A stretch of DNA of 64,000 nt from the NCBI GenBank assembly GCA_934120675.1, contig CAKOUU010000006.1:23408-87407 (forward strand), given 5' to 3'. This DNA is from an uncultured Clostridia bacterium. Lineage in GTDB: Bacteria > Bacillota > Clostridia > TANB77 > CAG-508. A program made the translations under genes and the position numbers. A model generated the notes under the pieces. The model made no database searches, was not told the DNA's origin, and worked only from the letters and a program-made list of their open reading frames with translations. Positions 26,082 through 52,405 of this stretch are shown here, one piece after another (position 1 is the stretch's first letter; the number at the start of each line of letters is the position of its first letter).

Positions 26082-26317
26082 TGGAGGCTTCCTTTCTTTT
26101 TTTCTTATTTTATTATTTTTTGGGAGATGTGTCAATATTGAGGGAGAAAAGAGGTTTGGGGAGTGTGAATTTTTTCTTAAATAATGTTGATACTTTATTT
26201 TTTAAATTTACATTATAGTATATTTAAACAATTACATAAATGTAGAACTACAAACAGACTGCACTTATATAATGAAAAAGTACAAATTCCTTTTACAACA
26301 GAAATATTGCTAAAAAA

Positions 26318-26869: not shown

Positions 26870-27033
26870 ATTTACATTCTACTATATTTAAATAACTACT
26901 TAAGGATTTAATTTCAATAGTGATTTCAGCGGTAGTATTTATATTCTACTATACTTAAATAACTACGCAATAGTATTACAGATTGGAATAATGCAACTTC
27001 TAAATTTATATTCTACTATATTTAAATAACTGC
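26870..27033 (-). CRISPR. Distal (old-end) part of the CRISPR array: 3 degenerate repeats, 2 spacers of 37 nt
   Basis: The repeats at 26870-26899, 26937-26966 and 27004-27033 each differ from the consensus ATTTATATTCTACTATATTTAAATAACTAC at one position. Confidence 0.9.
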
Positions 27034-31862: not shown

Positions 31863-32147
31863 TTATAAAAAATTATCTGTCACATCATCCTCAATCTTTC
31901 CCCAAAACTCCTTTTCTAACCACCTTTGACTTCTGCTCTTAAAGAAAATAACACTATCCTTATCCTCTCTAATCCATCTATTTAATTCAGACTTTAACTT
32001 TAATGCTTGAGACTCTAATAATTCGCCTTCAAATACTGAATTTTGAATATGTACCAAATATTTTTTGCATGTTTTAAACACTCTTCTTAGGACTCTTTGT
32101 CCTTCTTTATCCTCTAAATTAATATCATACACTAAAATAACATACAT
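31863..32147 (-). CDS. cas2: CRISPR-associated endoribonuclease Cas2
   Basis: It reads MYVILVYDINLEDKEGQRVLRRVFKTCKKYL...; the start at 32147 lies directly after the cas1 stop. Confidence 0.9.
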   Translation of the reverse strand: MYVILVYDINLEDKEGQRVLRRVFKTCKKYLVHIQNSVFEGELLESQALKLKSELNRWIREDKDSVIFFKSRSQRWLEKEFWGKIEDDVTDNFL

Positions 32148-32148
32148 A

Positions 32149-33141
32149 TTACCACCACATTTTAAACCCTTCATACTTTTCATCTTCTAATAAATGTTTG
32201 ATTAGCTTATAAACTTCTAATCTCATTAAATACTCATAACTAACTTCTCTGCCCAATTTTTTATGTTTAATTTTTGTTTGTAGCCTTAAATCAATTTCTC
32301 TTGTAATCTCTTTTCTTGCCTTATCTTTTATATATGTAAAATTCAATCCATCTTCAAAATCCTTTTCCGTTATCTGTTTTTTATTTAACATTGAAAAAAT
32401 CAGTCTATCCGCTATGATTGGTTTAAAGATTTCGGAAATATCTAAGCATAAAGAAAATCTTCTTTCTGATGGTTCATGTAAATAACTTATAGTTGGATTT
32501 AATTGTGTCTTATAAATTTCACTTAATACTCTTGTATATATAATTGTATTGACATATGAAATTAGCGAATTTATTGCATTATCAGGTGGATTTTTTACTC
32601 TTTTTTCAAATGCTATATCTTGATTTATTATTATATTCCATGTATCATAATATACTTTTCTTATATTTCCTTCTATTCCCATCAATTCTGGTACATCTTT
32701 ACACAAATTTATCTGTTTTCTTAAATAGTCTATTTCTTCCATATATTTCTTTAAGTCTTTTCCTCTATTATTGTAATATGTTAAATTTCTGTAAATATTG
32801 TATGATGCAGCTTCTATAAATGCTTTTGCAATGTTTAATCTTTTTTCTTTGTCCTTGTAATGTTCAACTTGTTTTATAAGCAATTTTCCTGAAACAAGTG
32901 ATTCTTTTGGATAATATGTTCCTGTATAAAATCCATAATAATTAAAAAAGTGTATATTTACTCCATATGATGATAAAAAGTTTAATAAACTTGTATTAAA
33001 ATCTAATTCTGTCATTACATATATATCGTCAACTCTTTCTACTGGTATTGATTTCTTTGTATTATCTTTGTATACAATTTCTAAAGTGTTGTCTTTTCTT
33101 TGTAGTCTCCCGCTTCTATATAAATAATAAGATTGTTTCAT
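32149..33141 (-). CDS. cas1: CRISPR-associated endonuclease Cas1 (I-B type)
   Basis: It reads MKQSYYLYRSGRLQRKDNTL... and has Cas1 hallmarks (LNPTISYLHEP, SLCLDISEIFKP). SD aaggagg lies upstream. Confidence 0.9.
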   Translation of the reverse strand: MKQSYYLYRSGRLQRKDNTLEIVYKDNTKKSIPVERVDDIYVMTELDFNTSLLNFLSSYGVNIHFFNYYGFYTGTYYPKESLVSGKLLIKQVEHYKDKEKRLNIAKAFIEAASYNIYRNLTYYNNRGKDLKKYMEEIDYLRKQINLCKDVPELMGIEGNIRKVYYDTWNIIINQDIAFEKRVKNPPDNAINSLISYVNTIIYTRVLSEIYKTQLNPTISYLHEPSERRFSLCLDISEIFKPIIADRLIFSMLNKKQITEKDFEDGLNFTYIKDKARKEITREIDLRLQTKIKHKKLGREVSYEYLMRLEVYKLIKHLLEDEKYEGFKMWW

Positions 33142-33151
33142 GTCTTCCTCC

Positions 33152-33640
33152 TTATACATAACATAAATCATAATATGAACATTTAGTACATATCTTTGAA
33201 TTAATTGTTTTGGGTGGTTTATCCATTTCTACTATTTCTTGTATGTTTTTTATTACATTATCTAATATTTTATTATCTTCATCTTCTAATATTATTTCTT
33301 TTGATTCCCTTAAAAGAGGAAAGTCTATTTTTGCTTGTATATTTTTTACACCTTTGTTTTCTAAATAATACATATAATATTTTATTTGCCATATTCCAGC
33401 ATCTTCAATTGATTTCGTCTTTTTAACTTCATGTAGTACTGCTCCATTTTTTATAAAGTCTATATTTATTGTATTGTCAATTAGAATTTGTTTCTTTTCT
33501 TTGCTATATGTTGTTTCATCAATTATTTTTCCTATTTCTACTAATTCACTATTTTGTTCCATATTGATTTGATTGTCAAAATACCATAATCTTCTATGAC
33601 ATATAAAGTAATAGTATATCATTATTCCTGTAACATTCAT
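33152..33640 (-). CDS. cas4: CRISPR-associated exonuclease Cas4
   Basis: It has an N-terminal Cys (YYYFICHRRLWY) and the C-terminal CTKCSYYDLC cluster of the RecB-like Cas4 family. Confidence 0.85.
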   Translation of the reverse strand: MNVTGIMIYYYFICHRRLWYFDNQINMEQNSELVEIGKIIDETTYSKEKKQILIDNTINIDFIKNGAVLHEVKKTKSIEDAGIWQIKYYMYYLENKGVKNIQAKIDFPLLRESKEIILEDEDNKILDNVIKNIQEIVEMDKPPKTINSKICTKCSYYDLCYV

Positions 33641-33754
33641 TACATCATCTCTTTCTACACAAATTTATTTATTTGATTTACAAATTCTTAAATATACTTG
33701 TTGCAAGCCACATTTTTATTACACTATGAAATAATCTGTGACTTGCAACATATC

Positions 33755-35947
33755 TTACAATTCTCTTGAACTTATTGAATATTCTTCATCATTTTCCAAA
33801 AGTAAACCAATTTCTTTATCATATTTTGTATCAATAATATATTTTCCTTTAATGTATGGACATTCTGTTATGACATTTCCTAATTTCCATTTGTTAGAAC
33901 TATTAATTGATATAAATAGTTTATCTATTCTTCGTTTTAACTCATATTTTTTCTTTTTGTCTGACTCCTTTGAATATTCTTCAAATAAATTTAGATTATC
34001 ATCATAAATAATTTTAGGAATAACATCAATATTATCAATATTTCTCAATATTTTTTGTGCATCCTTTTTACTTGTATCATAATCAATAATGTTATCTAGT
34101 ACTCGAAACGCATCATTGAAATTTTTGTAAAACTCAGTATTTTGTAGCATTTCTTTTGAATATAATTTATCAACTAAAGCTATTTTTGTTTTTTCTTCTA
34201 AAATTTGTCCGCTATGCTCTTGCAATAAATCAATACTTTTTTGATATATTTCTTTATCATATATGTATCCAACACCACTTGTTTCTTTTATATAAATTTT
34301 TACATTTGACTCTTTTCCTTTATATTCTCTACTTCTATAGCATCTTCCAAATCTTTGAAATAAACTGTCTAGTGTGGACATTTCTGTATATAGCATATCA
34401 AAGTCTATGTCTAATGAAGCCTCTACTATTTGTGTTGTTATCCATATTCCTGATTCAGCTTTTTGTTTTGAAAATTCTTTTATGCTTCTTTCTTTTTCAC
34501 TTCTATCTTCTTGTTCAAATCTTGAATGTAATAAATTTACTTTTTCTACTCCATAATTTTTTAATGCTTTATATAATTCTATTGCTTTGTTTATTGTGTT
34601 TACTATTATTAATACTTTTTTATTTTTTGCTTTTTCTTTTATTTCTTCTATTTCTTCATTAATTGATTTATCTATTATTTCAAATTTATGTCTTTTTGTA
34701 TCTTTTATAAATTCATTATATTCAAATTTTATTCCCATTACTTGTAGTTTTTCTCTGTATATTCTAGGAAGTGTTGCTGTTATTACCATAAATTTTCCAT
34801 CTAAGTTGTTTATCATTTGAAGTCCTTTTAATAGTACCGCTACTATTTCTGGTGAATATGCTTGTATCTCATCTATTACGACTTTTGAGTAACTTAGAGT
34901 TGCATATATTTTTTCATATCCTCTGTACTTAAATACAAATGGAAAGATTTGGTCTATTGTACATGTTGTGATTTTTTCATACAAATTTCTAGCTTGTTGT
35001 ATTTTATTAAATTCATTTTCTTCATTTTTTTCGTCTAAATAGTCTAATGCTGTTGAGTGTAATAGTCCAACATGTTTGTATCCTATTGTTTCTTTTATTC
35101 TGTCATATATTGCATTTATGCTTATTCTTAAAGGTAGTGTGAAAAATGTTTTGTCATTTTTGCTCCATAAAAGTGCTCCTTCTGTTTTTCCCATTCCTGT
35201 TGAGCCTATTACTATTACATTTTTGTCTTGATTTTTTTCTGCAAATTGTTGTAAATCGTTTTCTTTGAAGTTTTGCTTTTTCATAAATTCTTCTACAAAA
35301 TCTGCTATTTCTTCTTTTGTTTCGTCTTCTACTGTTATCCATGCTGAACTACAATAGTCTAGTCTATGTAATAGTCCTTTCATTAGGCAATATTCGTTAT
35401 ATAACTCATCTCCTTCTGTTATTCTCGCTTGTCCTTCTACCATTCCTAAATAAAATGTACTTAATTTTGGTATTTCAATTTGTAATTCTTTTTCTATTTT
35501 TTTGATGTTTGGCTCTATATCTTCTTTTATTATTTCTTCTAGTAGTTCACTGTTTATGTGTATTTTATTGTCTCTTTCGTGATGATAATAGATTGCTTGA
35601 TATACTAGTTTTCTTTCTTTTTTTGTCATTTCATATTGTTTGTATGGCACAAACATTGGAGATATTTGTTCATGTTTTATTTCTTGATTGTTAAATTTTG
35701 TTGGTATTAGTTCTTCTCCTATTGCTTCTCTTATTGCATTTTGAAATCCTGAAAATACTTTTCCTGCATCATGATATTTGCATACTATTTTCATTAGTTG
35801 CCAGAATCTTTCTTCTGGCATTTCTATTGATTGTGTTATTTTTTCTCCATATCCCTTTTTTAATATTTCTAAGTTCTCTAATAGTTTATCTGTGTGTTCT
35901 TTTATTGTTTCTATTGGATTTGATTTTGCATAATATTTATACTCCAT
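33755..35947 (-). CDS. cas3: CRISPR-associated helicase/nuclease Cas3 (HD domain fused)
   Basis: HD motifs (KYHDAGK, YYHHERD), helicase motif I GSTGMGKTE and motif II DEIQ are present. The likely start MEYKYYAKSNP overlaps the cas5 end. Confidence 0.9.
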   Translation of the reverse strand: MEYKYYAKSNPIETIKEHTDKLLENLEILKKGYGEKITQSIEMPEERFWQLMKIVCKYHDAGKVFSGFQNAIREAIGEELIPTKFNNQEIKHEQISPMFVPYKQYEMTKKERKLVYQAIYYHHERDNKIHINSELLEEIIKEDIEPNIKKIEKELQIEIPKLSTFYLGMVEGQARITEGDELYNEYCLMKGLLHRLDYCSSAWITVEDETKEEIADFVEEFMKKQNFKENDLQQFAEKNQDKNVIVIGSTGMGKTEGALLWSKNDKTFFTLPLRISINAIYDRIKETIGYKHVGLLHSTALDYLDEKNEENEFNKIQQARNLYEKITTCTIDQIFPFVFKYRGYEKIYATLSYSKVVIDEIQAYSPEIVAVLLKGLQMINNLDGKFMVITATLPRIYREKLQVMGIKFEYNEFIKDTKRHKFEIIDKSINEEIEEIKEKAKNKKVLIIVNTINKAIELYKALKNYGVEKVNLLHSRFEQEDRSEKERSIKEFSKQKAESGIWITTQIVEASLDIDFDMLYTEMSTLDSLFQRFGRCYRSREYKGKESNVKIYIKETSGVGYIYDKEIYQKSIDLLQEHSGQILEEKTKIALVDKLYSKEMLQNTEFYKNFNDAFRVLDNIIDYDTSKKDAQKILRNIDNIDVIPKIIYDDNLNLFEEYSKESDKKKKYELKRRIDKLFISINSSNKWKLGNVITECPYIKGKYIIDTKYDKEIGLLLENDEEYSISSREL

Positions 35948-36602
35948 TTGGCATCCTTTCACTATAAAAATATATATTGTCTCCGTCTTCATCCTGTAAT
36001 ATTTCTTCAATACCTTTATTAGTATATTTTTCTATATATTTTACATTTACTTTGTTCCATTGTCTTATATCATTTTTTATTTTGTATGTAGTATTTAGTT
36101 TGTAATTAATTCCTTCTATTTCGTTATCTATCCATTCCGGTACATATGCATTAATTTCTATTTTCGCTTCATCTATTTCTTTTACCTCTTTTAAAACTTT
36201 AATTTCGTCTATCCTTACAAGGTCTTCGTTTCTTCCTAGTGTGAATGTTTCTGTTCCGTTTATTATGTTTTCATATATTTTGTCTATGACGTCATCTTCT
36301 GCCTGTACATGTATAATTAAATTGACATTTAGTAATTGATGTACATTTCTTGGCATTGATGTTACTTTGTCTTTTCCTTTATACATTCTTAAATTTTGAT
36401 AGTTGCTAAATATTCCTTCATAGTTTCCTTGTATAGAAATGTTCATTGGAAAGTATTCTCCTGGTTGCGCTTGCAAGATTTTATGGAACATTCCTATTAC
36501 TGTTGAGTATGGTGGTAATGGATATGTTTCTGCTACTTTTGTGGCAAATGGCTTTTTATAACATGCTGTTTCTTGGTATAGTTTTAGTTTTAATATTTTC
36601 AT
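35937..36602 (-). CDS. cas5: Type I-B Cas5
   Basis: It has MKILKLKLYQETACYKKPFA..YPLPPYSTVIGM, typical of a Cas5 N-terminus. Confidence 0.85.
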   Translation of the reverse strand: MKILKLKLYQETACYKKPFATKVAETYPLPPYSTVIGMFHKILQAQPGEYFPMNISIQGNYEGIFSNYQNLRMYKGKDKVTSMPRNVHQLLNVNLIIHVQAEDDVIDKIYENIINGTETFTLGRNEDLVRIDEIKVLKEVKEIDEAKIEINAYVPEWIDNEIEGINYKLNTTYKIKNDIRQWNKVNVKYIEKYTNKGIEEILQDEDGDNIYFYSERMPNGV

Positions 36603-36672
36603 TTATACCAATCCTTTCTTTTATGCTTTGTAATATTTTTTCATTTCTTCTATGTTGAAAAATTTATTAAGT

Positions 36673-37581
36673 TTATGCTTTATAGTATTCTTCGACTTTT
36701 TCTTTTAGATTTTTAAAGATTTCTTCTATGTTTGTTGTTTTTCCTTCAAATATTTCTTCTATTTCTTTTTCATTTTTGAATGTGTTTTTTACTATTCCTA
36801 TTTTTGTGTCTTCTGATATTGAGTTTTCTCCTATTGTTAATGTTGCTGTGTCTTTTAACATTTCTGTGTCTATACTGAATTGTCCGTCTTTTCCGTTTAG
36901 TTTTATTCTTCCTAGGAAAAATGGTGAGTTTATGTCATACATTCCTCCTATTACAAATACTGGACTTAAGTTTTCTTCTCTTCCTCTTATTTCTCTGTTT
37001 AGGATTTTTACTATGTCTAGCAATTGGTTGATTCTTTTTGCTTTTTCTTCGTTTGGTAGTTCTATTTCTCCGTCTTTTCCTATTTTTTCTAGGTCTATTG
37101 TTATTGTGTATGTGTAGTAACTTAAGTGTTGTTCGATGTTTGCAAGGTTTGGAAATTCTCCTATTCTGTCTGCTAGTCCTTTATTGTTTAAAAATTCCAT
37201 ATCACTTTTATAGTCTTCTAATGATATTGCATTACTTAGTCTTACTGCTGCACTTCTTATGTTTGAGCCGTCATTTTTCGCTGTCTTCATGTATCCAAAT
37301 AAGTCCATTTCTTCTGAATCTTGTATTGTTAATTTGTCATCAAATTGGATTGTTCCTTTTTCTTTATTTACTACTTGTAAATTCCAATCAAACATTTTAT
37401 TTCCAAGTCTTACTATGTCATATCTTATTGCTTGTCTTGATGCAAATGTGTATACACTTCCGTCTCCTCTTGTTAATTTCTTTAGTTCTGATATATTACC
37501 TATTCCTTCTCCGTAGTTTAAACTTTGGCCTTTAAATATTATTGTTATTGATAATCCTTTTTTATTTTTTATATTCTCCAT
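36673..37581 (-). CDS. cas7: Type I-B Cas7 (Cst2/DevR/Csh2 family)
   Basis: It has LSITIIFKGQSLNYGEG..NISELKK...YTFASRQAIRYDI. Confidence 0.85.
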   Translation of the reverse strand: MENIKNKKGLSITIIFKGQSLNYGEGIGNISELKKLTRGDGSVYTFASRQAIRYDIVRLGNKMFDWNLQVVNKEKGTIQFDDKLTIQDSEEMDLFGYMKTAKNDGSNIRSAAVRLSNAISLEDYKSDMEFLNNKGLADRIGEFPNLANIEQHLSYYTYTITIDLEKIGKDGEIELPNEEKAKRINQLLDIVKILNREIRGREENLSPVFVIGGMYDINSPFFLGRIKLNGKDGQFSIDTEMLKDTATLTIGENSISEDTKIGIVKNTFKNEKEIEEIFEGKTTNIEEIFKNLKEKVEEYYKA

Positions 37582-37639
37582 TTTATTTCCTTCCTTTCTC
37601 TTTTTTGTTCTTCATTGTTATATGATTTTTATTATATTT

Positions 37640-39484
37640 TTATACTTTGGCTTCGCTATCTTCATCTTTTTTCTCGTATTTATTAGAAATTAGACCTGCT
37701 AAAAAGCTATGTGCAATTGATTCAAAATCTAGTCCTTCTGTTTGCATTGTTTCAATAAATATAGGGCTTACATCTTTTCCCATTGACATATGTATTCTTA
37801 TTACAATATCCATAAATTGTTTTTTGTTTCCCGCTTTTATACTGTTTAACATTTTATATGTATATCCATCAATTTTGTTTTCTTCTCCTGTTCTTTTTAA
37901 ATCCTCATGCATTTGTATTCCTAAGTTATACAATACTTTTAATTTGGCATCACTTTTTTTGATTTCTTCCATTTCAATGTCCTCCTTTTTTAATAGATTT
38001 AGTATCATTCTTACTCTTGTTGCTAAGAATGAATTGTATCCATTTGTATTTTCTTTATTTAGCTCATCTCTTAATCTGTCATTTATTATATATTTGATAT
38101 CTTTGTTCTTTAAAATATAGTCTACTATTTGTAGTCTATATCTGTAATCTCTTATTTTTGAAAGTGTTTTGTCTGAATATTCTGTAAAAAATTTTGATAC
38201 ATATCTTTTTATATTGAAGTATTCAATTCTACTATATGCTCCATATTCTGCTTCAAATTCAACTACAAATATATTTTCCAATTGCCATGTACTTACTTGT
38301 TTATCTTGCTCTACTATGTCTAGGATTAGTTCTGTATATGGATTTCCATCTCTGTTCTCATACCTTGATTTGTTACCAAAATTCACATTTGTTTTATATA
38401 ATTTTTCAACACTTGTATCTAGGTTCACAAAACTTAATATTTGTTTTTCTTTATAGTCTCCATTTTCTTTTACTGTTTTGGTTATTGTTGTTATTCCTGC
38501 TGGTATGCAAAATAAAATTAGTTTACATATATCACATATTGGCATTTTTACATTTTGCTCCCAGAAGAAGTTTCGTGCATTATCACTACTTATTGCTAGT
38601 GGTGCAAAATTTCCTTCTGAATAATTTGTTGTTAATCCAATTTCATTTTCACACATTGAGCATCTTTGAATAACCTTTTCTTTTAAATATCTTTGAATTT
38701 CTTCTACTTCTTTATTTTTTCCTATGTAGTCTTTCTCTATTTTTGAGTATATTTTTTCTATTTCTTTTGTTATATTTCCTTCTATTTTTGTTTTTTCTAT
38801 GTATTGTCTTATTTCTTCTATATTATATTTTCCTTTTATAATGTCTTGGATAAATCCTGTTTCTACAATGTTACTAACATAATCTTTGTACATTAATTTT
38901 TCTTGTTCTTCATATGTTAGTCCAGTTTTCACTACATTTAGGAAGCTTGGTTGTCCATAATATGTGTTGCTTAATATACTCTTGAATAGATTCAATGTAA
39001 GTCTTTTATTTATGTTTTCTTTTCTTATTTTTTCTAGTATTTTTTCTTCTATTTCTATTATCCCTTGTTTTGTATTTTCTTTTTCTATTTTGTCATATTG
39101 TTCTTTCATTTCATTGTATGTTTGCTCGTCTATTTTTTTAATTTTGTCTAATTGTTTTTTTACCGTGTCTTTTATGTATTTTTTATTTGTTTTTAATTTG
39201 TCTTTTCTTTGTTTTTCTTCTTCTTTTTCTAATGGCGTTTCTATGTTGTTTTCTAAATATCTAAATGCATTGTTTGTTCTATTTTTTACATTTTCTGCTA
39301 CATTGTATTTATCATAAAAATATTTAAAATAGTATTTATTGAAATCTCTTAAATCTTCTGTATCTATTTCTATATAGTTGTTTCTTTTTGTTGCAAATTG
39401 ATTCTCATTATGTTCTAATATTTTAAGAAAACCAACAACACCACAATTTAAGTACCAATCATTTAAGTATATTTTTGTTTTCAC
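37640..39484 (-). CDS. cas8b: Type I-B large subunit Cas8b
   Basis: Its position between cas6 and cas7, the N-terminus YLNDWYLNCGVVGFLKILEH, and a Cys cluster (CSMCENE...CDICKL) support the call. Confidence 0.8.
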   Translation of the reverse strand: MKTKIYLNDWYLNCGVVGFLKILEHNENQFATKRNNYIEIDTEDLRDFNKYYFKYFYDKYNVAENVKNRTNNAFRYLENNIETPLEKEEEKQRKDKLKTNKKYIKDTVKKQLDKIKKIDEQTYNEMKEQYDKIEKENTKQGIIEIEEKILEKIRKENINKRLTLNLFKSILSNTYYGQPSFLNVVKTGLTYEEQEKLMYKDYVSNIVETGFIQDIIKGKYNIEEIRQYIEKTKIEGNITKEIEKIYSKIEKDYIGKNKEVEEIQRYLKEKVIQRCSMCENEIGLTTNYSEGNFAPLAISSDNARNFFWEQNVKMPICDICKLILFCIPAGITTITKTVKENGDYKEKQILSFVNLDTSVEKLYKTNVNFGNKSRYENRDGNPYTELILDIVEQDKQVSTWQLENIFVVEFEAEYGAYSRIEYFNIKRYVSKFFTEYSDKTLSKIRDYRYRLQIVDYILKNKDIKYIINDRLRDELNKENTNGYNSFLATRVRMILNLLKKEDIEMEEIKKSDAKLKVLYNLGIQMHEDLKRTGEENKIDGYTYKMLNSIKAGNKKQFMDIVIRIHMSMGKDVSPIFIETMQTEGLDFESIAHSFLAGLISNKYEKKDEDSEAKV

Positions 39485-42974: not shown

Positions 42975-43709
42975 TTACTCATTACTTAAATTTTCAAAAT
43001 ATTCTTGAATATACATATTAAAATCCTCACATACTTGATAAACTTTTAACAACCATATACGCAAATTAGACATTTCTATTTTAAAATTTTCATCTTTATA
43101 AAATTCTGTGTCTTCTATTTTTTCATTTTGTTCAACATATTTATATGGTACTCCTTGTTTTGTAATTGGATATCTAGGAGCTATAAACGTATATTTATCA
43201 ACAGTATCAATCTTAAACATATCTGCTATTGTTTTTATAAATGTGTGTATCAATTTAAAGTCAGTTTCAAATTTACTAAATTCATTACTTTCCTTTATTT
43301 TTTTGTTTACAACAGTAGATAATTGTAAAATATTATGTCCTTCCCATGTTATGTCTGTATAATTTTCAAAATTATTTTCTAGAAAATATCTTGTTGCCTT
43401 CAGGAAAAGTTCTAATGCATGAATTGTATTAAAGAAAATTGGAAACATCCAGATATCTTTTTTATTGCTAATTCTATTTTTTATGCAATCTTCTAATAAA
43501 AATAAACTTGTTTCAGCATATCCTTCATACATAGATATAAATTGTTCATATATGGTTCCATCCATTCTAAAATTCATAAAAGCTTGATCATTAGAAAATT
43601 CATTTGTATTAAAGAATTTTATTTTATTCTTTTCTTTTAAAAATTCCTTTGATGATATTTTTCTTAATTCATCAAAAGATTCTAAATATTCAATTTCCAA
43701 TTTTTTCAT
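42975..43709 (-). CDS. Hypothetical all-alpha protein, operon partner of Fic (possibly HEPN-like)
   Basis: It starts 22 nt after the fic stop. It contains FFNTIHALELFLKATRY and EGHNILQL helices. This domain guess is weak. Confidence 0.4.
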   Translation of the reverse strand: MKKLEIEYLESFDELRKISSKEFLKEKNKIKFFNTNEFSNDQAFMNFRMDGTIYEQFISMYEGYAETSLFLLEDCIKNRISNKKDIWMFPIFFNTIHALELFLKATRYFLENNFENYTDITWEGHNILQLSTVVNKKIKESNEFSKFETDFKLIHTFIKTIADMFKIDTVDKYTFIAPRYPITKQGVPYKYVEQNEKIEDTEFYKDENFKIEMSNLRIWLLKVYQVCEDFNMYIQEYFENLSNE

Positions 43710-43731
43710 CTCCTATCTCTACAAACTACTA

Positions 43732-44790
43732 TTACTCGTTCACTATCCATTCTCCATTTTTTTTGCCATTTTTTCTTTCTATTATACCCTTTTCTTGCAT
43801 TTCTGCCATATATGTTTTGACAGTTCTTACAGATTTATTAATTTGTTTTGCAATTTCTTCTTGGTTTGTTGCTGGATTTACTTTTAATATATTTATAATT
43901 GCTTGTTCTTCTAAAGTGCAATTATTGCCCTTTAATTTATTTTTATTTGCACTTTGAATATTATCTATATGTGTATATCTATTCTTTAATTCATAGTTAC
44001 TATTTGTTAATAAATTATAAAAGAATTTTTCTAAAAATGAAGTATCCTCGAATACATTTTTTTCAAAATTTTTGTAATTAGCTCTTACTAATGAATTTCT
44101 AAAATACCATGAATTTTCAGCAAATACTTCATCATTAATATTAAATCCAAAAGTTCTTAGATATTTTATAATAAATACTGCTGTTGTTCTTGTATTTCCT
44201 TCGCAAAATGGATGTACTTGCCATATATTTGATGTAAATCTACATAGATGTTTAATAGATTCATCTAAACTTAATCCTTTATATAAAAAATTTTTTTCTT
44301 GGTCGAAGTCATATTCTAATGTTTCTTTTATTGTATCAAATGGTGCATATATTACTGTATCTCCATTTAACACCCATTCTTTTTTAGTAAAGTTATAATC
44401 CCTATATACTCCTGCTCCATCAAATACCTCTTTAAATAATCTTTTATGAATATTTAATAATTCTGTTGGTGAAAAATTAAATGCTTTTTCACTTAATATT
44501 TCTGTAATCCTTACTGCAACTTTATCAGCTTCCTCGCTCTCTTTTTCAAAGTTTTTTCTACTACCTTGAACTTCATAATATTCATCTATTCTTGTTTTTG
44601 CTTCTTCAATATCTATTGTTCCTTCAATGTGTTCCTTAGCTGTCTTTATCAAGTATTTTGAAGGCTTTAATCCATCTACATCTTGCAAACCAATTGCTGT
44701 TTCCCATGTTTTGGTTTTTTCTACTTGATTTGGTTCACCTTGTTTAATATATTCTGATAATTCTAAATTCCAATCTTCTTTTTTATTCAT
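43732..44790 (-). CDS. Fic/DOC family protein with a C-terminal winged-HTH
   Basis: It has the Fic motif HPFCEGNTRTTAVF, an N-terminal VbhA-like helix region, and the C-terminal EEIAKQINKSVRTVKTYMAEMQEKGIIER. Confidence 0.85.
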   Translation of the reverse strand: MNKKEDWNLELSEYIKQGEPNQVEKTKTWETAIGLQDVDGLKPSKYLIKTAKEHIEGTIDIEEAKTRIDEYYEVQGSRKNFEKESEEADKVAVRITEILSEKAFNFSPTELLNIHKRLFKEVFDGAGVYRDYNFTKKEWVLNGDTVIYAPFDTIKETLEYDFDQEKNFLYKGLSLDESIKHLCRFTSNIWQVHPFCEGNTRTTAVFIIKYLRTFGFNINDEVFAENSWYFRNSLVRANYKNFEKNVFEDTSFLEKFFYNLLTNSNYELKNRYTHIDNIQSANKNKLKGNNCTLEEQAIINILKVNPATNQEEIAKQINKSVRTVKTYMAEMQEKGIIERKNGKKNGEWIVNE

Positions 44791-44812
44791 TAGAAATACC
44801 TCCTACATATAT

Positions 44813-44841
44813 ATTATATCAGTTATCTGATATAATATCAA
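44813..44841 (-). promoter_or_regulatory. Candidate promoter of the fic operon
   Basis: On the minus strand: TTGATA, 17 nt, TATAAT. The -35 box overlaps the operator arm. Confidence 0.5.
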
Positions 44842-44898
44842 TATTTAAAGTGCAATTTTTGCACTTTAAATAGCAAAAGTTGCACTTTAAATATTGAT
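44837..44898. promoter_or_regulatory. Nested palindromic operator (three copies of the half-site TTGCACTTTAAATA)
   Basis: The arm tatttaaagtgcaa (44842-44855), 3 nt, then ttgcactttaaata (44859-44872), with a third identical 14-mer at 44880-44893. The outer 19-bp arms 44837-44855 and 44880-44898 are exact reverse complements. Confidence 0.75.
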
Positions 44899-44958
44899 CT
44901 ATACTTTTTAATAAAAATTAAGATGTTAATATTAACCAATCAGTATCTTAATACTTTT

Positions 44959-45804
44959 TTATTGTCTCCAATAATCTTTTATCATTTCATCTTTATATTG
45001 CTTATATCTATCTGTATATTTTTGCTTAAATTCTTTGACTGTTTCTCTCTTCATTGGATATTTTTCTTTAATTTTTTTACAATTAGGTCTTTCTTCATTA
45101 TTTTTTAGTAGTCTAATCAGTCCATGTATCGAAGTATTTGTTTTATAAAATGGATAAACTAATTGATTATAAACATTTTCGTAAGAAAATATCTCATATG
45201 ATGAAACCAATTTATCTGGTATAAACAATATTTCGTCATTCTCTATACATGGTACTAGTATTTCTTTTTTATGCCATTCTTGTATATCTACATCAAATAT
45301 CCATTTTTTCTTCTTTTTCAATTCAATGTTTATGTCGTATTTAGCTATTATTCCTATTGTAAATTCAAGTAATTCTTCATATATTATATTTGTCGTTAAA
45401 TCAGATACTTTATCTGGTCCGACATTTTCCGCTAGCACAAGTATATCTGGCATGTCCTCTATGTAGTCTTTGATTTTAATTGCTTCATCGAATATAACTA
45501 ATAGATCTCTTTGGCAGAACCCTTTACCCTTTGGTTTATCGTTTCTATTAGTATATCCTAACTTTATTGCATTTATTTCGTGTAAATGCTCTCCCATTTT
45601 TGCAGCATTATCTCTTAAATTGTGTTCCACTGAATAAAAGAACAAATCAAAGTATTTTAATATTTTTTCTTTTGCTCTCTTTAGCAATTCACTTCTTGTT
45701 TCATCTATCCTATATGGATCTATGAATAATTTATTATCATGTTCAAAATCTAATTGAACAATTTCTTGTATTTTCTCTATTTTATCTTTTAATTCTTTGT
45801 TCAT
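44959..45804 (-). CDS. Hypothetical protein (281 aa), operon partner of a small HNH nuclease
   Basis: The start MNKELKDKIEKIQ has SD aggag and lies 13 nt after the HNH stop. No family recognised. Confidence 0.45.
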   Translation of the reverse strand: MNKELKDKIEKIQEIVQLDFEHDNKLFIDPYRIDETRSELLKRAKEKILKYFDLFFYSVEHNLRDNAAKMGEHLHEINAIKLGYTNRNDKPKGKGFCQRDLLVIFDEAIKIKDYIEDMPDILVLAENVGPDKVSDLTTNIIYEELLEFTIGIIAKYDINIELKKKKKWIFDVDIQEWHKKEILVPCIENDEILFIPDKLVSSYEIFSYENVYNQLVYPFYKTNTSIHGLIRLLKNNEERPNCKKIKEKYPMKRETVKEFKQKYTDRYKQYKDEMIKDYWRQ

Positions 45805-45817
45805 CTTCTTCTCCTTT

Positions 45818-46069
45818 CTATCCTTTGTATGGATATTTATCACTCTTTTGTCTATTTTCTTTCCATTGCACAGCATGTAAATTATTAGAATTATCTGTTC
45901 CTCCCTTTGATATTGGATGTTTATGGTCTATTTCCCATCCCATATCACTTTGTCTTCCATATGATGATTTATACATAATATTTCCATAATCATCCTTTCT
46001 ATATACATTTGGATTCTTTCCTCTAATTTTATGTGCATTGTTCCATGCTTCTTCAACTTTTCTATTCAT
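45818..46069 (-). CDS. Small stand-alone HNH endonuclease
   Basis: It has WEIDHKHPISKGGTDNSNNLHAVQWKENRQK (H-N-H). Confidence 0.75.
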   Translation of the reverse strand: MNRKVEEAWNNAHKIRGKNPNVYRKDDYGNIMYKSSYGRQSDMGWEIDHKHPISKGGTDNSNNLHAVQWKENRQKSDKYPYKG

Positions 46070-47874: not shown

Positions 47875-49836
47875 TTATTCATATCTATATTCTTCGCTAT
47901 CTTCAGCGACCATAATATTATCTCTATTTTCTTCATGATCTATTGAATATATAATTTCATCTTTTTGATTTAATCTTTTCTTTAAATACTCTGATAATTC
48001 TTTATCTGTACAATAAATATAGCATCCTTTTTGTCCTCTTGTCATTAATGTTCTATAAGTATTTTTTATTATCTCATCTGCTACTTTTTCTGCATGTTCG
48101 AAGTCTTGCTGAGCCATTTTATATATTCCCTTTATTGATTGGTCTGTCTTTGCTCTTTCTGTAACATCTGTAACTATTTTATTATCCTCATATCTTAAAT
48201 CATTACCTATAATTACACCTACATAGTCAAATTCTAGTCCTTGACAAGTATGTATACATCCTACTTCATTTACTGAATTAGGGTCTATTGCCCATGTTTG
48301 ACTATTACCTAAATTCCAACTCATTGCAAAATTATATTCAGGAATTGTTATATCGAATACGTCTGATTTATTTTTTCCATCTTTTATCCAATTCCAGCAA
48401 TATCCTGCAAGTAATCTGGCTTTATTATTGATTTTATTTTTTTCAAAAATTATATCTCTTACTTCATTAGGATCATCACATATCTTAATATCATAATCCA
48501 AATCAAATCCCTCATTATTAGCTGTTTTTCTAATATCTAGCACAGCATCTAACCATGCAATATATCCATCTGATCCATTACATCTAAATTGTGATTCTAA
48601 TTCCATTACTTCTGATTTTGCATTTGCTTGTCCAATATACTTTTGTATTTCTTCAACACTTCCAATATCTTTTAAAGTTACCCTTTGAGATTCATCTATA
48701 AAAAATATTGAAAATTTAGAAACTTTTATAATTTCTTTTATTTGATTTTCTCCTAAATTTTGAAACATTCCTGATTTTGCGTTTAATCTATGTGCTTCAT
48801 CAATAATTAATACATCAAATTCATTCTCAGATGATTCAACAAAAGAACCTGATCCTTTAAATAAATTATTTATTCTTGTTTTTCTAAAATCTCCACTCAA
48901 TTTTGTTGCATATACATTTCTTGGTGCTGCATTCTTTGTTACATATGAGCAAACCATATTTTCATTTGTTAATTTCACTAACAAATTAATTGCTAATACT
49001 GATTTTCCTGTACCTGGTCCCCCTTTAACAATTAATACTCTTTTATTTCCGTCTCTATATGATTTTCTAGCCATTTCTAATGCTGTTTCATATACAAGTT
49101 TTTGATCATCAATCATAATAAATTCTTCATTGCCTTGTAACATACTTGATAAAGCATCTTGTAATGATTTAGATGGTCTAATTTTTCCATTTTCAATCAT
49201 ATATAGTGTTTCTTTATCATCACCATATTTAATATACTTATTTATAAAATCTCTTAATTTTTCTACATCACCTTTTATAAAAGCAGGTGCTTTTTCTAAA
49301 TAATATTTATAATTATCTGATAGTAATGTTGGAGGTGTTACAGTTAGATAATTATGAAGATATGCACATGGATGTAAATCAATTTGTCTATCTTGTACAG
49401 TTTCATTATAATCTTCTATTGTTGTTGCATACGACCATGCTTGATACGATGGATGAGCTACTTCTCTTAACGCATGCCCTGTAAATGCTTGTACTATTCC
49501 GTCTTTTCCATTTACAATGTTTGCTTCAGTCCATTGTTTTAATTCAACGATAATAGCTGTATTTTTTAGTTGTCCGTCTTTACCTGTAATTATAAAATCA
49601 ACTCTTTTAGAAGTATTTGGTATTTTAAATTCAATAGCTATTCCTACATTTCCAGGTATATTATTATCTATTAAAACTTTCATCATGTATTGCATAGAAT
49701 TATTCCATGCTTTTCTTTCGGACTGAGATGTATGATATCCCATCTTTTCATAGAATTTTCTATCTATATTTTCTTCAATTCTATCTTGTACAACATCTTC
49801 TACAAATAGTTGCTTTGTTGCTTCATATACTATCAT
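47875..49836 (-). CDS. DUF2075-family nuclease-helicase (PD-(D/E)xK-like N-domain plus SF1-like P-loop ATPase), possibly Nhi-like
   Basis: The N-domain has RVDFIITG...AIIVELKQW. Walker A is VKGGPGTGKSVLAINLL and Walker B is VLIIDEAHRL. Confidence 0.65.
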   Translation of the reverse strand: MIVYEATKQLFVEDVVQDRIEENIDRKFYEKMGYHTSQSERKAWNNSMQYMMKVLIDNNIPGNVGIAIEFKIPNTSKRVDFIITGKDGQLKNTAIIVELKQWTEANIVNGKDGIVQAFTGHALREVAHPSYQAWSYATTIEDYNETVQDRQIDLHPCAYLHNYLTVTPPTLLSDNYKYYLEKAPAFIKGDVEKLRDFINKYIKYGDDKETLYMIENGKIRPSKSLQDALSSMLQGNEEFIMIDDQKLVYETALEMARKSYRDGNKRVLIVKGGPGTGKSVLAINLLVKLTNENMVCSYVTKNAAPRNVYATKLSGDFRKTRINNLFKGSGSFVESSENEFDVLIIDEAHRLNAKSGMFQNLGENQIKEIIKVSKFSIFFIDESQRVTLKDIGSVEEIQKYIGQANAKSEVMELESQFRCNGSDGYIAWLDAVLDIRKTANNEGFDLDYDIKICDDPNEVRDIIFEKNKINNKARLLAGYCWNWIKDGKNKSDVFDITIPEYNFAMSWNLGNSQTWAIDPNSVNEVGCIHTCQGLEFDYVGVIIGNDLRYEDNKIVTDVTERAKTDQSIKGIYKMAQQDFEHAEKVADEIIKNTYRTLMTRGQKGCYIYCTDKELSEYLKKRLNQKDEIIYSIDHEENRDNIMVAEDSEEYRYE

Positions 49837-49851
49837 TTTTATCTCCTATAT

Positions 49852-50274
49852 TTAAATTTTTCTAATTAATGTTATAACTTTTCCTATTATTTTAATTGTT
49901 TTATTTAACTCTTCCTCTTTATATACTGTAGTATCATATTCTCTATTTAATGGTTCTAATAATATATATCCATTAGATTTTGAAATTCTTCTAACTATTG
50001 CTTCTTCATTTGCTATTCTTACAACGCATATATCCAAATTAGAAAATACTTCTTCTTTTTCAAAAATAATAATATCATTCTTAGATATTTTGGGTTCCAT
50101 AGTATCATTTTTAATTTTATATGCATAAAATTTTTTAGGTTTATAACTATTATTTATATCATTATAATAAATTACATCAAAATCATGCAATTCTCCGTTT
50201 TCAATTCGTTTTATACTTTCAACACTTTTAATTAATGGAATCTTAATATATTTTTCTTTTTCATTCATAAACAT
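49852..50274 (-). CDS. S24 (LexA/UmuD)-like domain protein with substituted catalytic dyad
   Basis: NDTMEPKISKNDIIIF aligns with the GDSMEP motif (Ser to Thr). AIVRRISK aligns with VKRL (Lys to Arg). There is no HTH domain. Confidence 0.5.
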   Translation of the reverse strand: MFMNEKEKYIKIPLIKSVESIKRIENGELHDFDVIYYNDINNSYKPKKFYAYKIKNDTMEPKISKNDIIIFEKEEVFSNLDICVVRIANEEAIVRRISKSNGYILLEPLNREYDTTVYKEEELNKTIKIIGKVITLIRKI

Positions 50275-50280
50275 TTCCCT

Positions 50281-50598
50281 TTATAACTTATTGTATTTTG
50301 TACTTACTCCTTTTGCTTTATCTATTGGATATTTTTTCTTTGTCTTCTCTAATTTATTTAATATAATATCTTCAGGATTTACATTTAATTTCATAGCCAT
50401 TTGAATGCAATAAGTAAAAACATCCGCTAATTCTTCGCAAACCTCTTCTTTATTATAATTATCACTATTCCATTGAAAACACTCTAATAATTCACCTGAT
50501 TCAATCGCAATTGACTTAGCAAGATTTTCTGGAGAATGAAATTGATCCCAGTCTCTTTCTTCATTGAATTGTTTTATTTCTTGCATTAACTTATCCAT
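50281..50598 (-). CDS. MazG-type nucleotide pyrophosphohydrolase (small dimeric type)
   Basis: It has FNEERDWDQFHSPENLAKSIAIESGELLECFQW and EELADVFTYCIQMA. Confidence 0.8.
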   Translation of the reverse strand: MDKLMQEIKQFNEERDWDQFHSPENLAKSIAIESGELLECFQWNSDNYNKEEVCEELADVFTYCIQMAMKLNVNPEDIILNKLEKTKKKYPIDKAKGVSTKYNKL

Positions 50599-50906
50599 TA
50601 TTCTGCCTCCTCTAAATAAATCTTTTTCTCAAACGCTCCTCTTTTTTCTTGTTTATTTATTCTTATTTTTTCAAATTCTTTGATTGAAATATCCATAGAA
50701 TTTAATATTCCATAAATAACTTCAACTATATCTGCTAATTCTTCAACATTGTTATCTTCTAAATATTCTTTTACTTCTTCTTGTAACTTTTTATTTAATT
50801 CTTGTCTATATTCATTGTCATCTAATATTCTGTATCTGGCTATTCTTCCATCTGTTTCGATAATATCTGTTATTTTATCTCTAACAAGTTTGTTATATAT
50901 TTTCAT
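50598..50906 (-). CDS. MazG-superfamily / PRA-PH-like NTP pyrophosphatase, paralogue of 5944..6273
   Basis: It has MKIYNKLVRDKITDII and EELADIVEVIY. It shares 1-nt TAATG overlaps with both neighbours. Confidence 0.7.
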   Translation of the reverse strand: MKIYNKLVRDKITDIIETDGRIARYRILDDNEYRQELNKKLQEEVKEYLEDNNVEELADIVEVIYGILNSMDISIKEFEKIRINKQEKRGAFEKKIYLEEAE

Positions 50907-51919
50907 TATTTTCCTCCTATCCTACAAGTATAATTTGTTGCTTGTAGTTTTTCTCTATTTATAGCTCCTTTTATAATCTTTAGATCTGCAGACATCGTTT
51001 TTGTATTAAAATTATAAACTCTATATAAATAATATTTATCTTTATATTGTTCAGAAAATTCAACTTCGTTTTCTGATATATGAAATATATTATTTAATCC
51101 TCCTTTAGTTGTTTTTACTTCTATATATTTCTCGTTTCCATCTTTATCATATGAAAGCACATCAAATCTTTCAGCATTTCCTGCAATTTCTCTTGTTGTA
51201 AAAACTTTATCTGCTAGATCTTCCCTTCCTTCTAATATAAGTCTAGTTTTTTCATATTCTACAACGACATCTTCGCCTTTTTTTCCTAATTTTGTATTCT
51301 TTTTTATTTCTCCCTCGAAATTGATATTCTTATTGCTATAAAATTCATTTGTATTTTTTCCTTTTCTACTTTCATATTTATATGAATACTCTGTTTCTTC
51401 TTCATTTAATTCCAATGTAAATTTTTTAGTGTCAAGCTTTTCAATATCATATGTATTTATTTTTTTGTCATTTATTAATCGATTTGAATTGTCTTCATTC
51501 CAGTCTAAAATCTGCCACTTGAAATAAACTGGTTTTTCTCTTTGGTTATCATGATCTACATATGCTAATAGCCCCATATATGTATAATCTTCTTTATCAG
51601 ATGTTCTTAAAAATAGGTATATATTATTTTTTAAATAATCATGATTTATAAAGTCAATTATTCTTGATTCATTTAAAGTTTGAGAAGGTTGTGATTGCCA
51701 TGTTAAAATTCCGTTCTCATCTATATTTTCATCAAATTCATGACCAGATTGTTTCTTTCCATATGTTACTAGAAATATATAATCATGTTGTGTTCCTGGA
51801 ACTCTTATTATTCCATGTAGTCCCCAGGATCCTGTTTGTGGTGTAAAATTTGTATCTGGCGAAAAAACATCATGTATATCTTTTCTTGAATATTTCTCAT
51901 ATCTAACTAATTCTCTCAT
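50906..51919 (-). CDS. DUF3427-like N-domain fused to a DUF3883-type restriction-endonuclease-fold domain
   Basis: The N-domain has GSWGLHGIIRV...YIFLVTYGK...ILTWQSQ...IYLFLRT..YTYMGLL. The C-domain has GKKGEDVVVEYE...FDVLSYDKDGNEKYIEVKTTKG...FHISENEV. Confidence 0.55.
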   Translation of the reverse strand: MRELVRYEKYSRKDIHDVFSPDTNFTPQTGSWGLHGIIRVPGTQHDYIFLVTYGKKQSGHEFDENIDENGILTWQSQPSQTLNESRIIDFINHDYLKNNIYLFLRTSDKEDYTYMGLLAYVDHDNQREKPVYFKWQILDWNEDNSNRLINDKKINTYDIEKLDTKKFTLELNEEETEYSYKYESRKGKNTNEFYSNKNINFEGEIKKNTKLGKKGEDVVVEYEKTRLILEGREDLADKVFTTREIAGNAERFDVLSYDKDGNEKYIEVKTTKGGLNNIFHISENEVEFSEQYKDKYYLYRVYNFNTKTMSADLKIIKGAINREKLQATNYTCRIGGK

Positions 51920-51927
51920 TTTTCCTC

Positions 51928-52299
51928 CTATATCAAATCAAATACTACTTTATCTGCTCCTGCAAATTCAAATTTATCTTTTTCATCTTTTGTTATCCAT
52001 TTACAACTTTCATGTTCTAACAATTCTACTTTTTCACTCAATAATTTTGCTTTATAAAAAATTAATTTTATATCTTTTTCAGGATAATGATGTATGCTTT
52101 CTCCTATATATTCATTTACTTCTATATCCGCATTAAGTTCTTCCTTTATTTCTCTCATCAATGCACTTTCATAAGATTCATTTTTTTCTACTTTTCCTCC
52201 TGGAAATTCCCATAATCCACCCTGAGCCTTTTTTAAATTTCTTTGTGCTATTAAAAACTTATTATTTTTATAGATTACTCCAGCAACTACTTCTATCAT
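51928..52299 (-). CDS. NUDIX hydrolase, MutT-like (d)NTP pyrophosphohydrolase
   Basis: The Nudix box is GGLWEFPGGKVEKNESYESALMREIKEELN. Confidence 0.85.
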   Translation of the reverse strand: MIEVVAGVIYKNNKFLIAQRNLKKAQGGLWEFPGGKVEKNESYESALMREIKEELNADIEVNEYIGESIHHYPEKDIKLIFYKAKLLSEKVELLEHESCKWITKDEKDKFEFAGADKVVFDLI

Positions 52300-52405
52300 T
52301 TTTTCTCCTAAATTCCATTTTTTACAAATATATCACAAAATCTTAATTTTCTCAACAAAATGCTCTTTATTTCTACAAAAAAATAGAAGTATTTCTACTT
52401 CCATT

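Follow-up and report, generated by a model that had tools for sequence, protein, structure and literature searches.

The question raised by this locus is whether six tightly packed genes on the minus strand of a Clostridia contig constitute a single defence system or several. The genes, which we denote p1 to p6 in 5' to 3' order, occupy positions 47875-52299 of the window, i.e. the 64,000-nucleotide (nt) stretch of DNA from an uncultured Clostridia bacterium that was analysed here (assembly GCA_934120675.1, contig CAKOUU010000006.1), and encode a NUDIX hydrolase (p1), a DUF3427-DUF3883 protein (p2), a small acidic helical protein (p3), a MazG-like pyrophosphatase (p4), a stand-alone S24 domain (p5) and a DUF2075 helicase (p6) (Table 1). 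The original prediction, made from the letters of the sequence without database searches, read the six genes as one undescribed system in which three distinct nucleoside triphosphate (NTP) pyrophosphatase folds are joined to nucleases. Instead of one new six-part system, the block is a stack, specific to one lineage, of smaller anti-phage modules that are known in part and in which each nuclease or helicase is paired with a small nucleotide pyrophosphatase. With regard to function, we put at about one half the probability that it is a composite, modified-cytosine-directed anti-phage restriction cassette built of evolutionarily separable modules, in which pyrophosphatases that sanitise the nucleotide pool are accessory.

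The co-occurrence of the six genes was analysed in two samples. On the p6 side, 80 loci of species-representative genomes were retrieved with p6 (60-95% identity) from Clostridia, Bacilli, Mycoplasmatota-type metagenome-assembled genomes (MAGs), Bacillaceae isolates and one Methanosphaera MAG; these loci were searched with all six proteins, and their neighbouring genes were clustered. On the p2 side, 47 metagenome loci were collected. Among 82 loci, all six genes are found only in two copies of the window itself (L001 and L002) and in L032; five genes, without the S24 gene, are present in three genome loci, and p2, p3, MazG and DUF2075 in one, the NUDIX gene, p2 and p3 being missing from most DUF2075 loci. 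Where p2 is at least 83% identical and enough flanking sequence is available, the NUDIX and DUF2075 genes are present in 20 of 20 cassettes and p3 with the adjacent MazG gene in 19 of 20. The six-gene arrangement is not a product of chance, and its five-gene version is recurrent: this common form, which lacks p5, occurs in hundreds of metagenome assemblies, with one p3 sequence appearing in 782 blocks of the collection. The six-gene form occurs in several independent metagenomes, and all copies of the complete set are at least 93% identical and are carried by a single family of mobilisable elements from gut Clostridia. Conservation of the six-family neighbourhood, whose absence the original prediction had named among the results that would refute it, does not extend beyond these near-identical copies. 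One diverged five-gene copy (L119, 60-76% identity) was discarded, its open reading frames (ORFs) being fragmented by assembly errors or decay.

The restriction protein of the block is p2. It matches DUF3427 (PF11907; 56.1 bits, cut-off 27.7) over residues 3-135 and the C-terminal half of the model, and NOV_C/DUF3883 (PF13020; 67.2 bits, cut-off 22.1); no PLD or helicase domain was found in it with Pfam. In PADLOC, p2 is hit by PDC-S36 (1.6e-35) and PD-T4-1 (1.2e-18), and the residues D253...E267-x-K269 do not vary among 18 homologues with identities down to 39%. Judged by its domains and size, with McaZI taken from its published description, p2 has the type IV architecture of the McaZI group. 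McaZI (338 amino acids (aa)), BwiMMI (336 aa) and EfaL9I are DUF3427-DUF3883 modification-dependent restriction proteins that bind DNA containing 5-methylcytosine (5mC) or 5-hydroxymethylcytosine (5hmC) and restrict T4gt in vivo (Lutz et al., 2019; PMC6765204). One of the three gene organisations described for this group (organisation 3) places the restriction gene beside a predicted DUF2075 NTPase, and a coupling of the two was proposed by the authors (PMC6765204). The window protein shares with this group the two-domain architecture, the length (337 versus 336-338 aa), the D...ExK motif, the location in a defence island and the presence of a DUF2075 NTPase nearby. It differs in that p2 lies between the NUDIX gene (upstream) and p3 (downstream), neither of which is mentioned in that study, and in that the DUF2075 gene is three genes away rather than adjacent. 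Homologues of p2 below about 50% identity are mostly solitary, as they are on two plasmids.

The NUDIX protein p1, encoded 8 nt upstream of p2, is most similar to pyrimidine (deoxy)nucleoside triphosphate diphosphatases. It scores 101.5 bits (3.2e-29) with the NCBIfam model of NudG (PRK10546), higher than with the E. coli MutT model (71.2 bits, 7.1e-20, under the cut-off), and matches the structure of the NudG CTP pyrophosphohydrolase (PDB 2rrk) at 6.7e-19; its best-characterised relatives are enzymes of the NudG type. Given that the NCBIfam score falls below the NudG cut-off, cytosine specificity of p1 is only a lead. Over its full length (residues 1-120 versus positions 6-125 of a 135-position model), p1 also matches the PADLOC candidate PDC-S07 (6e-44), which appears in defence surveys as a listed candidate, with no test reported there. 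In 10 of 13 cases among the genome loci, a DUF3427 protein is encoded beside the NUDIX gene; it is either p2 or a protein of SauUSI architecture (PLD-SF2 helicase-DUF3427); the NUDIX cluster of p1 abuts SauUSI-like genes in six loci (L012, L016, L029, L059, L066, L074). In two further loci (L117, L118), a NUDIX gene lies directly downstream of a p2-like gene at 41% identity, i.e. in a gene order other than that of the window. These linkages resemble those of SauUSI, which, together with at least 60 SauUSI-like genes, is linked to a conserved MutT/NUDIX gene whose function was left unresolved (Xu et al., 2011; PMC3141236). SauUSI and the block have in common a DUF3427 reader of modified cytosine linked to a MutT/NUDIX gene. 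In the window, however, a separate PD-(D/E)xK protein carries the reader domain, the helicase-nuclease is a DUF2075 protein of superfamily 1 (SF1) type rather than a PLD protein with a superfamily 2 (SF2) helicase, and two additional MazG-type genes are present; the single PLD-SF2-helicase-DUF3427 protein belongs to cluster c7 of the related loci and is not encoded in the window.

The third member of this part of the block, p3, is probably an NTP pyrophosphatase-like protein of the MazG/PRA-PH superfamily, an assignment that we regard as provisional. Its match to PRA-PH (17 bits), the label given by the original prediction, is under the cut-off of 21.3, but the same match recurs in 10 of 10 family members. 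The acidic residues E43, E44, E47 ... E55, E56, D59 are invariant, and the source annotations of this very large family (about 8000 clusters) name it a MazG-superfamily NTP pyrophosphohydrolase. Comparison of the p3 and p4 families with hhalign gave a probability of 38%, and a profile search of PDB with p3 yielded nothing better than E of about 0.13; the AlphaFold2 (AF2) model has four helices at a predicted local distance difference test (pLDDT) value of 64.5, and a Foldseek fold search with this model returned zero matches. The p2-p3 pair is kept at 60-68% identity in two loci (L102, L103), where it stands beside a PLD-helicase that lacks DUF3427, an arrangement that amounts to a split form of SauUSI. 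Among more remote relatives, p3-like genes adjoin the gene of a PLD-helicase (L079) or of an HNH endonuclease of about 330 aa (L016, L035). This endonuclease has an unannotated N-terminal domain; it directly follows the p3-like genes (L016, 4875-6165; L035, 16913-18345), also adjoins a p2-like gene on a Priestia plasmid (L144, 5458-6468), and may be a further reader-nuclease paired with a small pyrophosphatase.

The second part of the block is formed by p4 and p6, and this pair is much more widespread. The p4 protein matches the DCTPP1 and RS21-C6 structures in PDB at about 1e-16, with motifs in common; these are its best-characterised relatives, and the metal-binding tetrad E33-x-x-E36 ... 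E56-x-x-D59 is invariant in 54 members of the p4 family. Both NudG/Orf135 of E. coli and the mammalian DCTPP1/RS21-C6 have been named specific hydrolases of 5-methyl-deoxycytidine triphosphate (5-methyl-dCTP) (PMC10742078, PMC3744803); NudG and DCTPP1 are housekeeping genes, whereas p1 and p4 are located in a defence island. Of the 76 genome loci with enough upstream sequence, 53 have a p4-type gene upstream of DUF2075: in 29 of these 53 the two genes abut (gap of at most 32 nt), in 4 they are divergent, and in about 20 co-directional genes are found between them. The identities of the MazG and DUF2075 proteins co-vary (Spearman 0.88, n=56). The pair is also encoded on plasmids, namely many megaplasmids of the Bacillus cereus group, where DUF2075 is only about 28% identical, and plasmids of Priestia, Marivirga (Bacteroidota) and Nocardiopsis (Actinomycetota). 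Relatives of p6 at 53-64% identity occur in archaea (L060 and L135, Methanosphaera; L136, a plasmid of Halalkalicoccus jeotgali), and on the plasmid of this haloarchaeon the MazG gene is located 5 nt upstream; these archaeal genes indicate, at the level of sequence comparison, transfer of the MazG-DUF2075 pair between Bacteria and Archaea. In three loci (L019, L028, L044), two tandem DUF2075 paralogues follow a single MazG gene. Genes for p4-like MazG proteins (33-66% identity) are also common in viral and prophage contigs of IMG/VR (L146-L225), mostly without a DUF2075 neighbour. The possibility that the MazG family of p4 is specific to DUF2075 was dropped, the family being mostly solitary in viral contigs and found in unrelated contexts on plasmids.

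The space between the MazG and DUF2075 genes behaves, as far as the compared sequences tell, as an insertion hotspot. Apart from the S24 gene, it is occupied by an unannotated two-gene pair, an AspBHI-like type IV enzyme, HNH nucleases, GIY-YIG, T5orf172, HEPN-AbiU2 and DUF4145 proteins, DUF2075 paralogues, or a SauUSI-like gene with a NUDIX gene, every inserted gene being co-directional. The gaps (about 13, 445, 607, 780, 1180 and 1880 nt) differ even among cassettes at least 94% identical (L003-L082, L083-L105). Given this variation among nearly identical cassettes, p5 is an optional insertion; only 4 of the 20 close cassettes on the p2 side, and 1 of the 80 genome loci, contain it. For the same reason, a fixed three-gene system MazG-S24-DUF2075 was considered and rejected. 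In an alignment with LexA (3k2z), the catalytic serine of p5 is replaced by threonine (NDTM versus GESM) and the lysine by arginine, and the Ala-Gly cleavage site is absent; by this comparison p5 is a catalytically dead S24 fold, and its description as a "pseudo-S24" domain in the original prediction was apt. A search for p5 on plasmids gave only distant LexA-type matches in an uninformative context.

In p6, the SLFN-g3 helicase model is matched over its full length, and Walker A (GPGTGKS) and DEAH motifs are present in the translation. The PADLOC matches are all partial (PDC-S41 4.4e-20, AbiO 2.8e-15, Nhi 1.2e-14), those to Nhi and AbiO covering residues 174-422, i.e. the P-loop region. The N-terminal domain is predicted to be PD-(D/E)xK-like from an invariant motif, E69...D80...E98-x-K100. 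Against Pfam at E up to 10, this domain produced a single match, to HSDR_N_2, at E=0.11; a PDB profile search found nothing relevant, and its AF2 model (pLDDT 39.7) is unusable, probably because the alignment held only homologues at least 90% identical over the domain. Of the DUF2075 PD-(D/E)xK helicase that the original prediction had seen in p6, the helicase is thus confirmed, and the nuclease half stands on the motif and this single HSDR_N_2 match. The combination of an N-terminal nuclease with DUF2075 ("Nhi-like") is a validated single-gene defence (Millman et al., 2022, preprint), and p6, with its DUF2075 helicase and a putative nuclease-like N-terminal domain, has the organisation of both these proteins and Nhi of S. 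epidermidis (SERP2475; Bari et al.). It differs from them in that the PADLOC Nhi model reaches only the P-loop region while the N-terminal domain matches no family, and in that the p6 clade usually has a MazG partner gene, unmentioned in the Nhi and Millman preprints.

With regard to layout, the ORF list and the sequence bear out the six minus-strand ORFs of the original prediction, with intergenic gaps, from p1 to p6, of 8, -1, -1, 6 and 15 nt. At 50906 (p2/p3) and 50598 (p3/p4), the stop and start codons overlap as TAATG. The view that these co-directional genes are tightly coupled and form a defence-type block within a defence island also holds. A ribosome-binding site (AGGAG or GGAGG) precedes 5 of the 6 starts, that of p5 being weaker; gene callers place the p5 start 6 nt later, giving a protein of 138 aa. 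The promoter-like site upstream of the NUDIX gene (Table 1) is a candidate start of the transcription unit; the other of the best minus-strand sites (47811-47783) lies beyond the end of the block, and in this AT-rich DNA promoter-like matches are no more frequent than in shuffled sequences. A hairpin with a run of T (52401-52377), read from the sequence, sets the Hachiman genes apart from the block; the terminator scan passed over it, its stem having fewer than three G-C pairs, and the same scan called no minus-strand terminator inside the block. Together with the overlaps, these signals are consistent with a single transcription unit, which is plausible although they are not proof. Pfam supports five of the six domain calls, p3 being the exception. 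The three pyrophosphatase folds claimed originally reduce, by sequence comparison, to two, NUDIX and the all-alpha MazG type.

Table 1. Genes and predicted signals of the six-gene block (window coordinates)
Feature	Position	Strand	Details
p1, NUDIX hydrolase, MutT/NudG type, 123 aa, Nudix box intact	51928..52299	-	Pfam NUDIX_4, 70.9 bits, 9.6e-20
p2, DUF3427 (putative modified-cytosine reader) + DUF3883/NOV_C PD-(D/E)xK nuclease, 337 aa	50906..51919	-	Pfam, PADLOC
p3, helical protein, 102 aa, MazG/PRA-PH-like	50598..50906	-	overlaps p2 stop codon (TAATG)
p4, MazG-like all-alpha NTP pyrophosphatase, 105 aa, DCTPP1/RS21-C6-like	50281..50598	-	Pfam MazG-like PF12643, 69.1 bits (cut-off 27), 4e-19
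p5, stand-alone S24 (LexA/UmuD-type) domain, 140 aa	49852..50274	-	Pfam Peptidase_S24 PF00717, 70 bits (cut-off 23.3), 1.7e-19
p6, DUF2075/Schlafen-group-3 SF1-type helicase + 260-aa N-terminal domain	47875..49836	-	Pfam SLFN-g3_helicase PF09848, 360 bits, 1.3e-107, full-length model
Promoter-like site TTGAGA, 17 nt, TG-TATATT	52327..52355	-	5' of NUDIX gene; 10/12 consensus matches, extended -10 TG
Terminator-like hairpin GAAGTA-GAAA-TACTTC then TATTTTTTT	52377..52401	-	low GC; right after HamB stop codon

The gene order, domain identities, conserved catalytic residues and pairwise linkages observed here can be combined with what is published on homologues, namely the binding of 5mC/5hmC DNA and restriction of T4gt by the McaZI group, defence by Nhi-like proteins and hydrolysis of 5-methyl-dCTP by NudG and DCTPP1, into the following tentative scheme. 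The first module would consist of the McaZI-type p2, with its DUF3427 reader of 5mC/5hmC-type DNA and DUF3883 nuclease, flanked by p1 upstream and p3 downstream; the second would be the DCTPP1-like p4 with the Nhi-like, Schlafen-type DUF2075 protein p6, a widespread two-gene module whose insertion hotspot here holds p5. In this scheme, p2 would recognise DNA with modified cytosine and then nick, cut or degrade it, and p6, through a presumed physical or functional cooperation with p2, would supply ATP-driven unwinding or helicase-nuclease activity, the role played by the PLD-helicase in SauUSI. We infer that p1, p3 and p4 hydrolyse 5-substituted dCTPs (5-methyl-dCTP, 5-hydroxymethyl-dCTP or similar), which would either prevent self-restriction, by keeping the host DNA free of these bases, or starve phages that modify their cytosine; p5 could have some role in addition. 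The theme of modified cytosine recurs in that 16 of the 80 DUF2075 loci have, within the MazG/DUF2075 frame or adjacent to it, a McaZI-like, SauUSI-like or AspBHI-like gene; all three families have the build of restriction enzymes that depend on 5mC/5hmC. Given that the unrelated NUDIX and MazG folds both occupy a nuclease-adjacent position, it appears that pyrophosphatase activity itself has been selected. The removal of modified deoxynucleoside triphosphates (dNTPs) coupled to attack on modified DNA, one of the two mechanisms suggested in the original prediction, remains the best-supported one, narrowed to modified cytosine.

Several observations speak against the restriction cassette that we favour. 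Cleavage by the McaZI group in vitro is slight (PMC6765204), and deletion of the nudix gene linked to SauUSI left restriction of plasmid transformation intact (Monk et al., 2012; PMC3312211), a result which, carried over by analogy, fits an accessory role and equally well no role in defence. The score of p1 lies below the NudG equivalog cut-off (101.5 versus 156 bits), and neither the fold of p3 (hhalign, AF2 and Foldseek results given above) nor the nuclease nature of the p6 N-terminus (no PDB match, low pLDDT) is confirmed. In viral contigs, p4-like MazG genes are solitary in 73 of 80 cases and have a DUF2075 neighbour in only 7 of 80, and some of those on plasmids are in unrelated contexts. 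The 80 genome loci were drawn with peptide patterns derived from p6 and are accordingly biased to relatives at least 60% identical. Finally, part of the clustering could result from generic packing of defence islands.

The main alternative to this restriction cassette, which we consider unlikely, is conditional depletion of dNTPs, with the pyrophosphatases as effectors that would be switched on by the DUF3427 sensor of modified bases, possibly through binding of modified mononucleotides released in infection, so that the pools are drained and the infection is aborted. This is how PUA-Calcineurin-HAD operates, a system in which a PUA-like sensor of m6-dAMP triggers dNTP depletion and rare variants of which have a MazG-like effector (preprint 10.64898/2026.01.15.699771); both this system and the block bring together a reader of modified bases and enzymes that hydrolyse nucleotides. 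The PUA-like secondary-structure elements reported in DUF3427 and the restriction of T4gt in vivo by McaZI proteins that cleave little in vitro (Lutz et al., PMC6765204) point in the same direction, as do the stop/start overlap of p2 and p3 and the appearance of MazG among the predicted, unvalidated defence domains of DefensePredictor (2026). However, the reader of the block is fused to a nuclease, whose invariant D...ExK motif argues for DNA cleavage; no Calcineurin-CE, HAD or kinase partner is encoded in the block; p1, p3 and p4 are minimal single-domain proteins in which a regulatory domain is not evident; house-cleaning is a constitutive function of the relatives DCTPP1 and NudG (PMC10742078, PMC3744803); and many p2 homologues have no pyrophosphatase neighbour. 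Furthermore, filament assembly and pool depletion are features of PUA-Calcineurin-HAD, whereas the block is known from its genes alone.

An equally low probability is given to mere juxtaposition, in which independent single-gene defence or house-cleaning genes would have been brought together by defence-island packing without any cooperation. The density of defence genes in the window (CRISPR-Cas, nSTAND3/PDC-S73, Hachiman, Fic/PDC-S72 and an M78/HTH pair), the treatment of p1, p2 and p6 relatives as single-gene candidates in PADLOC, the single-gene function of Nhi-like proteins (Millman preprint), the free exchange of slot contents and the confinement of the six-gene set to one lineage would all be expected in this case, but the pairwise links recur across divergence levels, gene orders, phyla and domains, MazG and DUF2075 co-diverge, co-expression is indicated by overlapping stop and start codons and by gaps of 5-13 nt, and three pyrophosphatase-type families of two unrelated folds, each beside a nuclease or helicase, are hard to obtain by chance. 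The non-random linkage of pyrophosphatases to nucleases implied in the original prediction is supported, and its single six-gene system is not. That all six components, the pseudo-S24 protein included, are needed together is improbable: the tight coupling of the ORFs, the lack of a called internal terminator and the occurrence of the six-gene form in several independent metagenomes are offset by other findings, in that 16 of 20 close cassettes lack p5, as does the common form, alternative genes are present at its position, most DUF2075 loci are without the NUDIX gene, p2 and p3, and sub-blocks occur separately. Both the NUDIX and the MazG folds are able to hydrolyse signalling nucleotides, and each pyrophosphatase gene is directly 5' of a potentially toxic nuclease gene, so that these enzymes might degrade a nucleotide signal, as the original prediction also suggested, or act as an antitoxin-like brake on the nucleases until infection. 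This we regard as very improbable: with Pfam and the neighbour clusters, no cyclase or other signal-generating enzyme was found in the block or the conserved pairs, Pfam detects no sensor domain for a nucleotide signal in the nuclease and helicase partners, and cells from which the nudix gene adjacent to SauUSI had been deleted were viable and restricted as before (PMC3312211).

With regard to novelty, the combination described in the original prediction has been published in part, given the adjacency of McaZI-type and DUF2075 genes (2019), the DUF3427-NUDIX linkage (2011) and Nhi-like defence. Three points appear to be new: MazG and DUF2075 form a widespread pair that encloses an insertion slot, p3 is paired with nucleases, and the accessory enzymes converge on families of 5-methyl-dCTP hydrolases. 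No paper joining DUF2075 or Nhi-like proteins with MazG was found in the literature, a negative result that is only suggestive, most subscription-journal papers being outside the search. Taken jointly, that MazG-DUF2075 is an undescribed, widely mobile two-gene defence module of Bacteria and Archaea in which a Schlafen-type nuclease-helicase acts jointly with a DCTPP1-like pyrophosphatase, with a plug-in slot for interchangeable nuclease or sensor genes, and that hydrolysis of modified dNTPs by NUDIX and MazG enzymes is an unrecognised second arm of type IV restriction, directed at the precursor pool, with the polymer left to the nucleases, is a possible but doubtful proposition. If the pyrophosphatases do hydrolyse 5-substituted dCTPs, type IV restriction would gain an arm that acts on the precursor pool, either protecting cytosine-methylating cells from self-restriction or directly attacking phages with hydroxymethylated or hypermodified cytosine. 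This would explain the linkage of MutT/NUDIX genes to SauUSI-like enzymes, a puzzle since 2011, and provide a function for the MazG domains flagged as defence-associated by machine-learning surveys. The MazG-DUF2075 pair, for its part, ties a nucleotide-sanitising enzyme to the prokaryotic relatives of the Schlafen antiviral helicases. PADLOC recognises p1, p2 and p6 through the single-gene candidates PDC-S07, PDC-S36 and PDC-S41, and none of its models matched p3, p4 or p5; annotation tools score these candidates singly, and such pairings are overlooked.

The block is the cargo of a mobilisable element that is very dense in defence genes. Identical or nearly identical copies are found in human-gut metagenome contigs assigned to Clostridia, directly downstream of genes for DUF6076, HTH_17, Phage_rep_org_N, an IstB/DnaA-like ATPase, and MobC or a relaxase. 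Upstream of the block in the window is the Hachiman system, seen already in the original prediction and identified by PADLOC through HamB (9e-41), and downstream lies a pair of HTH and M78 peptidase genes (capP-like, 8.6e-38). Farther along the window, a CRISPR array (30155-31552; 30-nt repeat ATTTATATTCTACTATATTTAAATAACTAC, period of about 65 nt) is accompanied by a type I cas operon (31863-39484) with Cas1 (32149-33171), Cas3 (33755-36010) and a Cas8b-type CXXC protein (37640-39484). The region of 22611-26135 and 27022-29883 encodes a 1174-aa nSTAND3 NTPase that matches the PADLOC candidate PDC-S73 (1.8e-64) and, beside it, an ORF of 953 aa that neither Pfam nor PADLOC matches. Downstream of the block (42975-45876) are a Fic-domain protein (43732-44790; PDC-S72, 7e-125, with a weak SoFic match) and a DUF8370 protein (44959-45876; weak PDC-M36A match), a further defence candidate like the Fic gene. 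In sister elements (L139-L143; 8639-12309), Dodola (DolA 1.6e-58, DolB 5.4e-126) comes after the five-gene block, together with a gene that faintly matches QueC.

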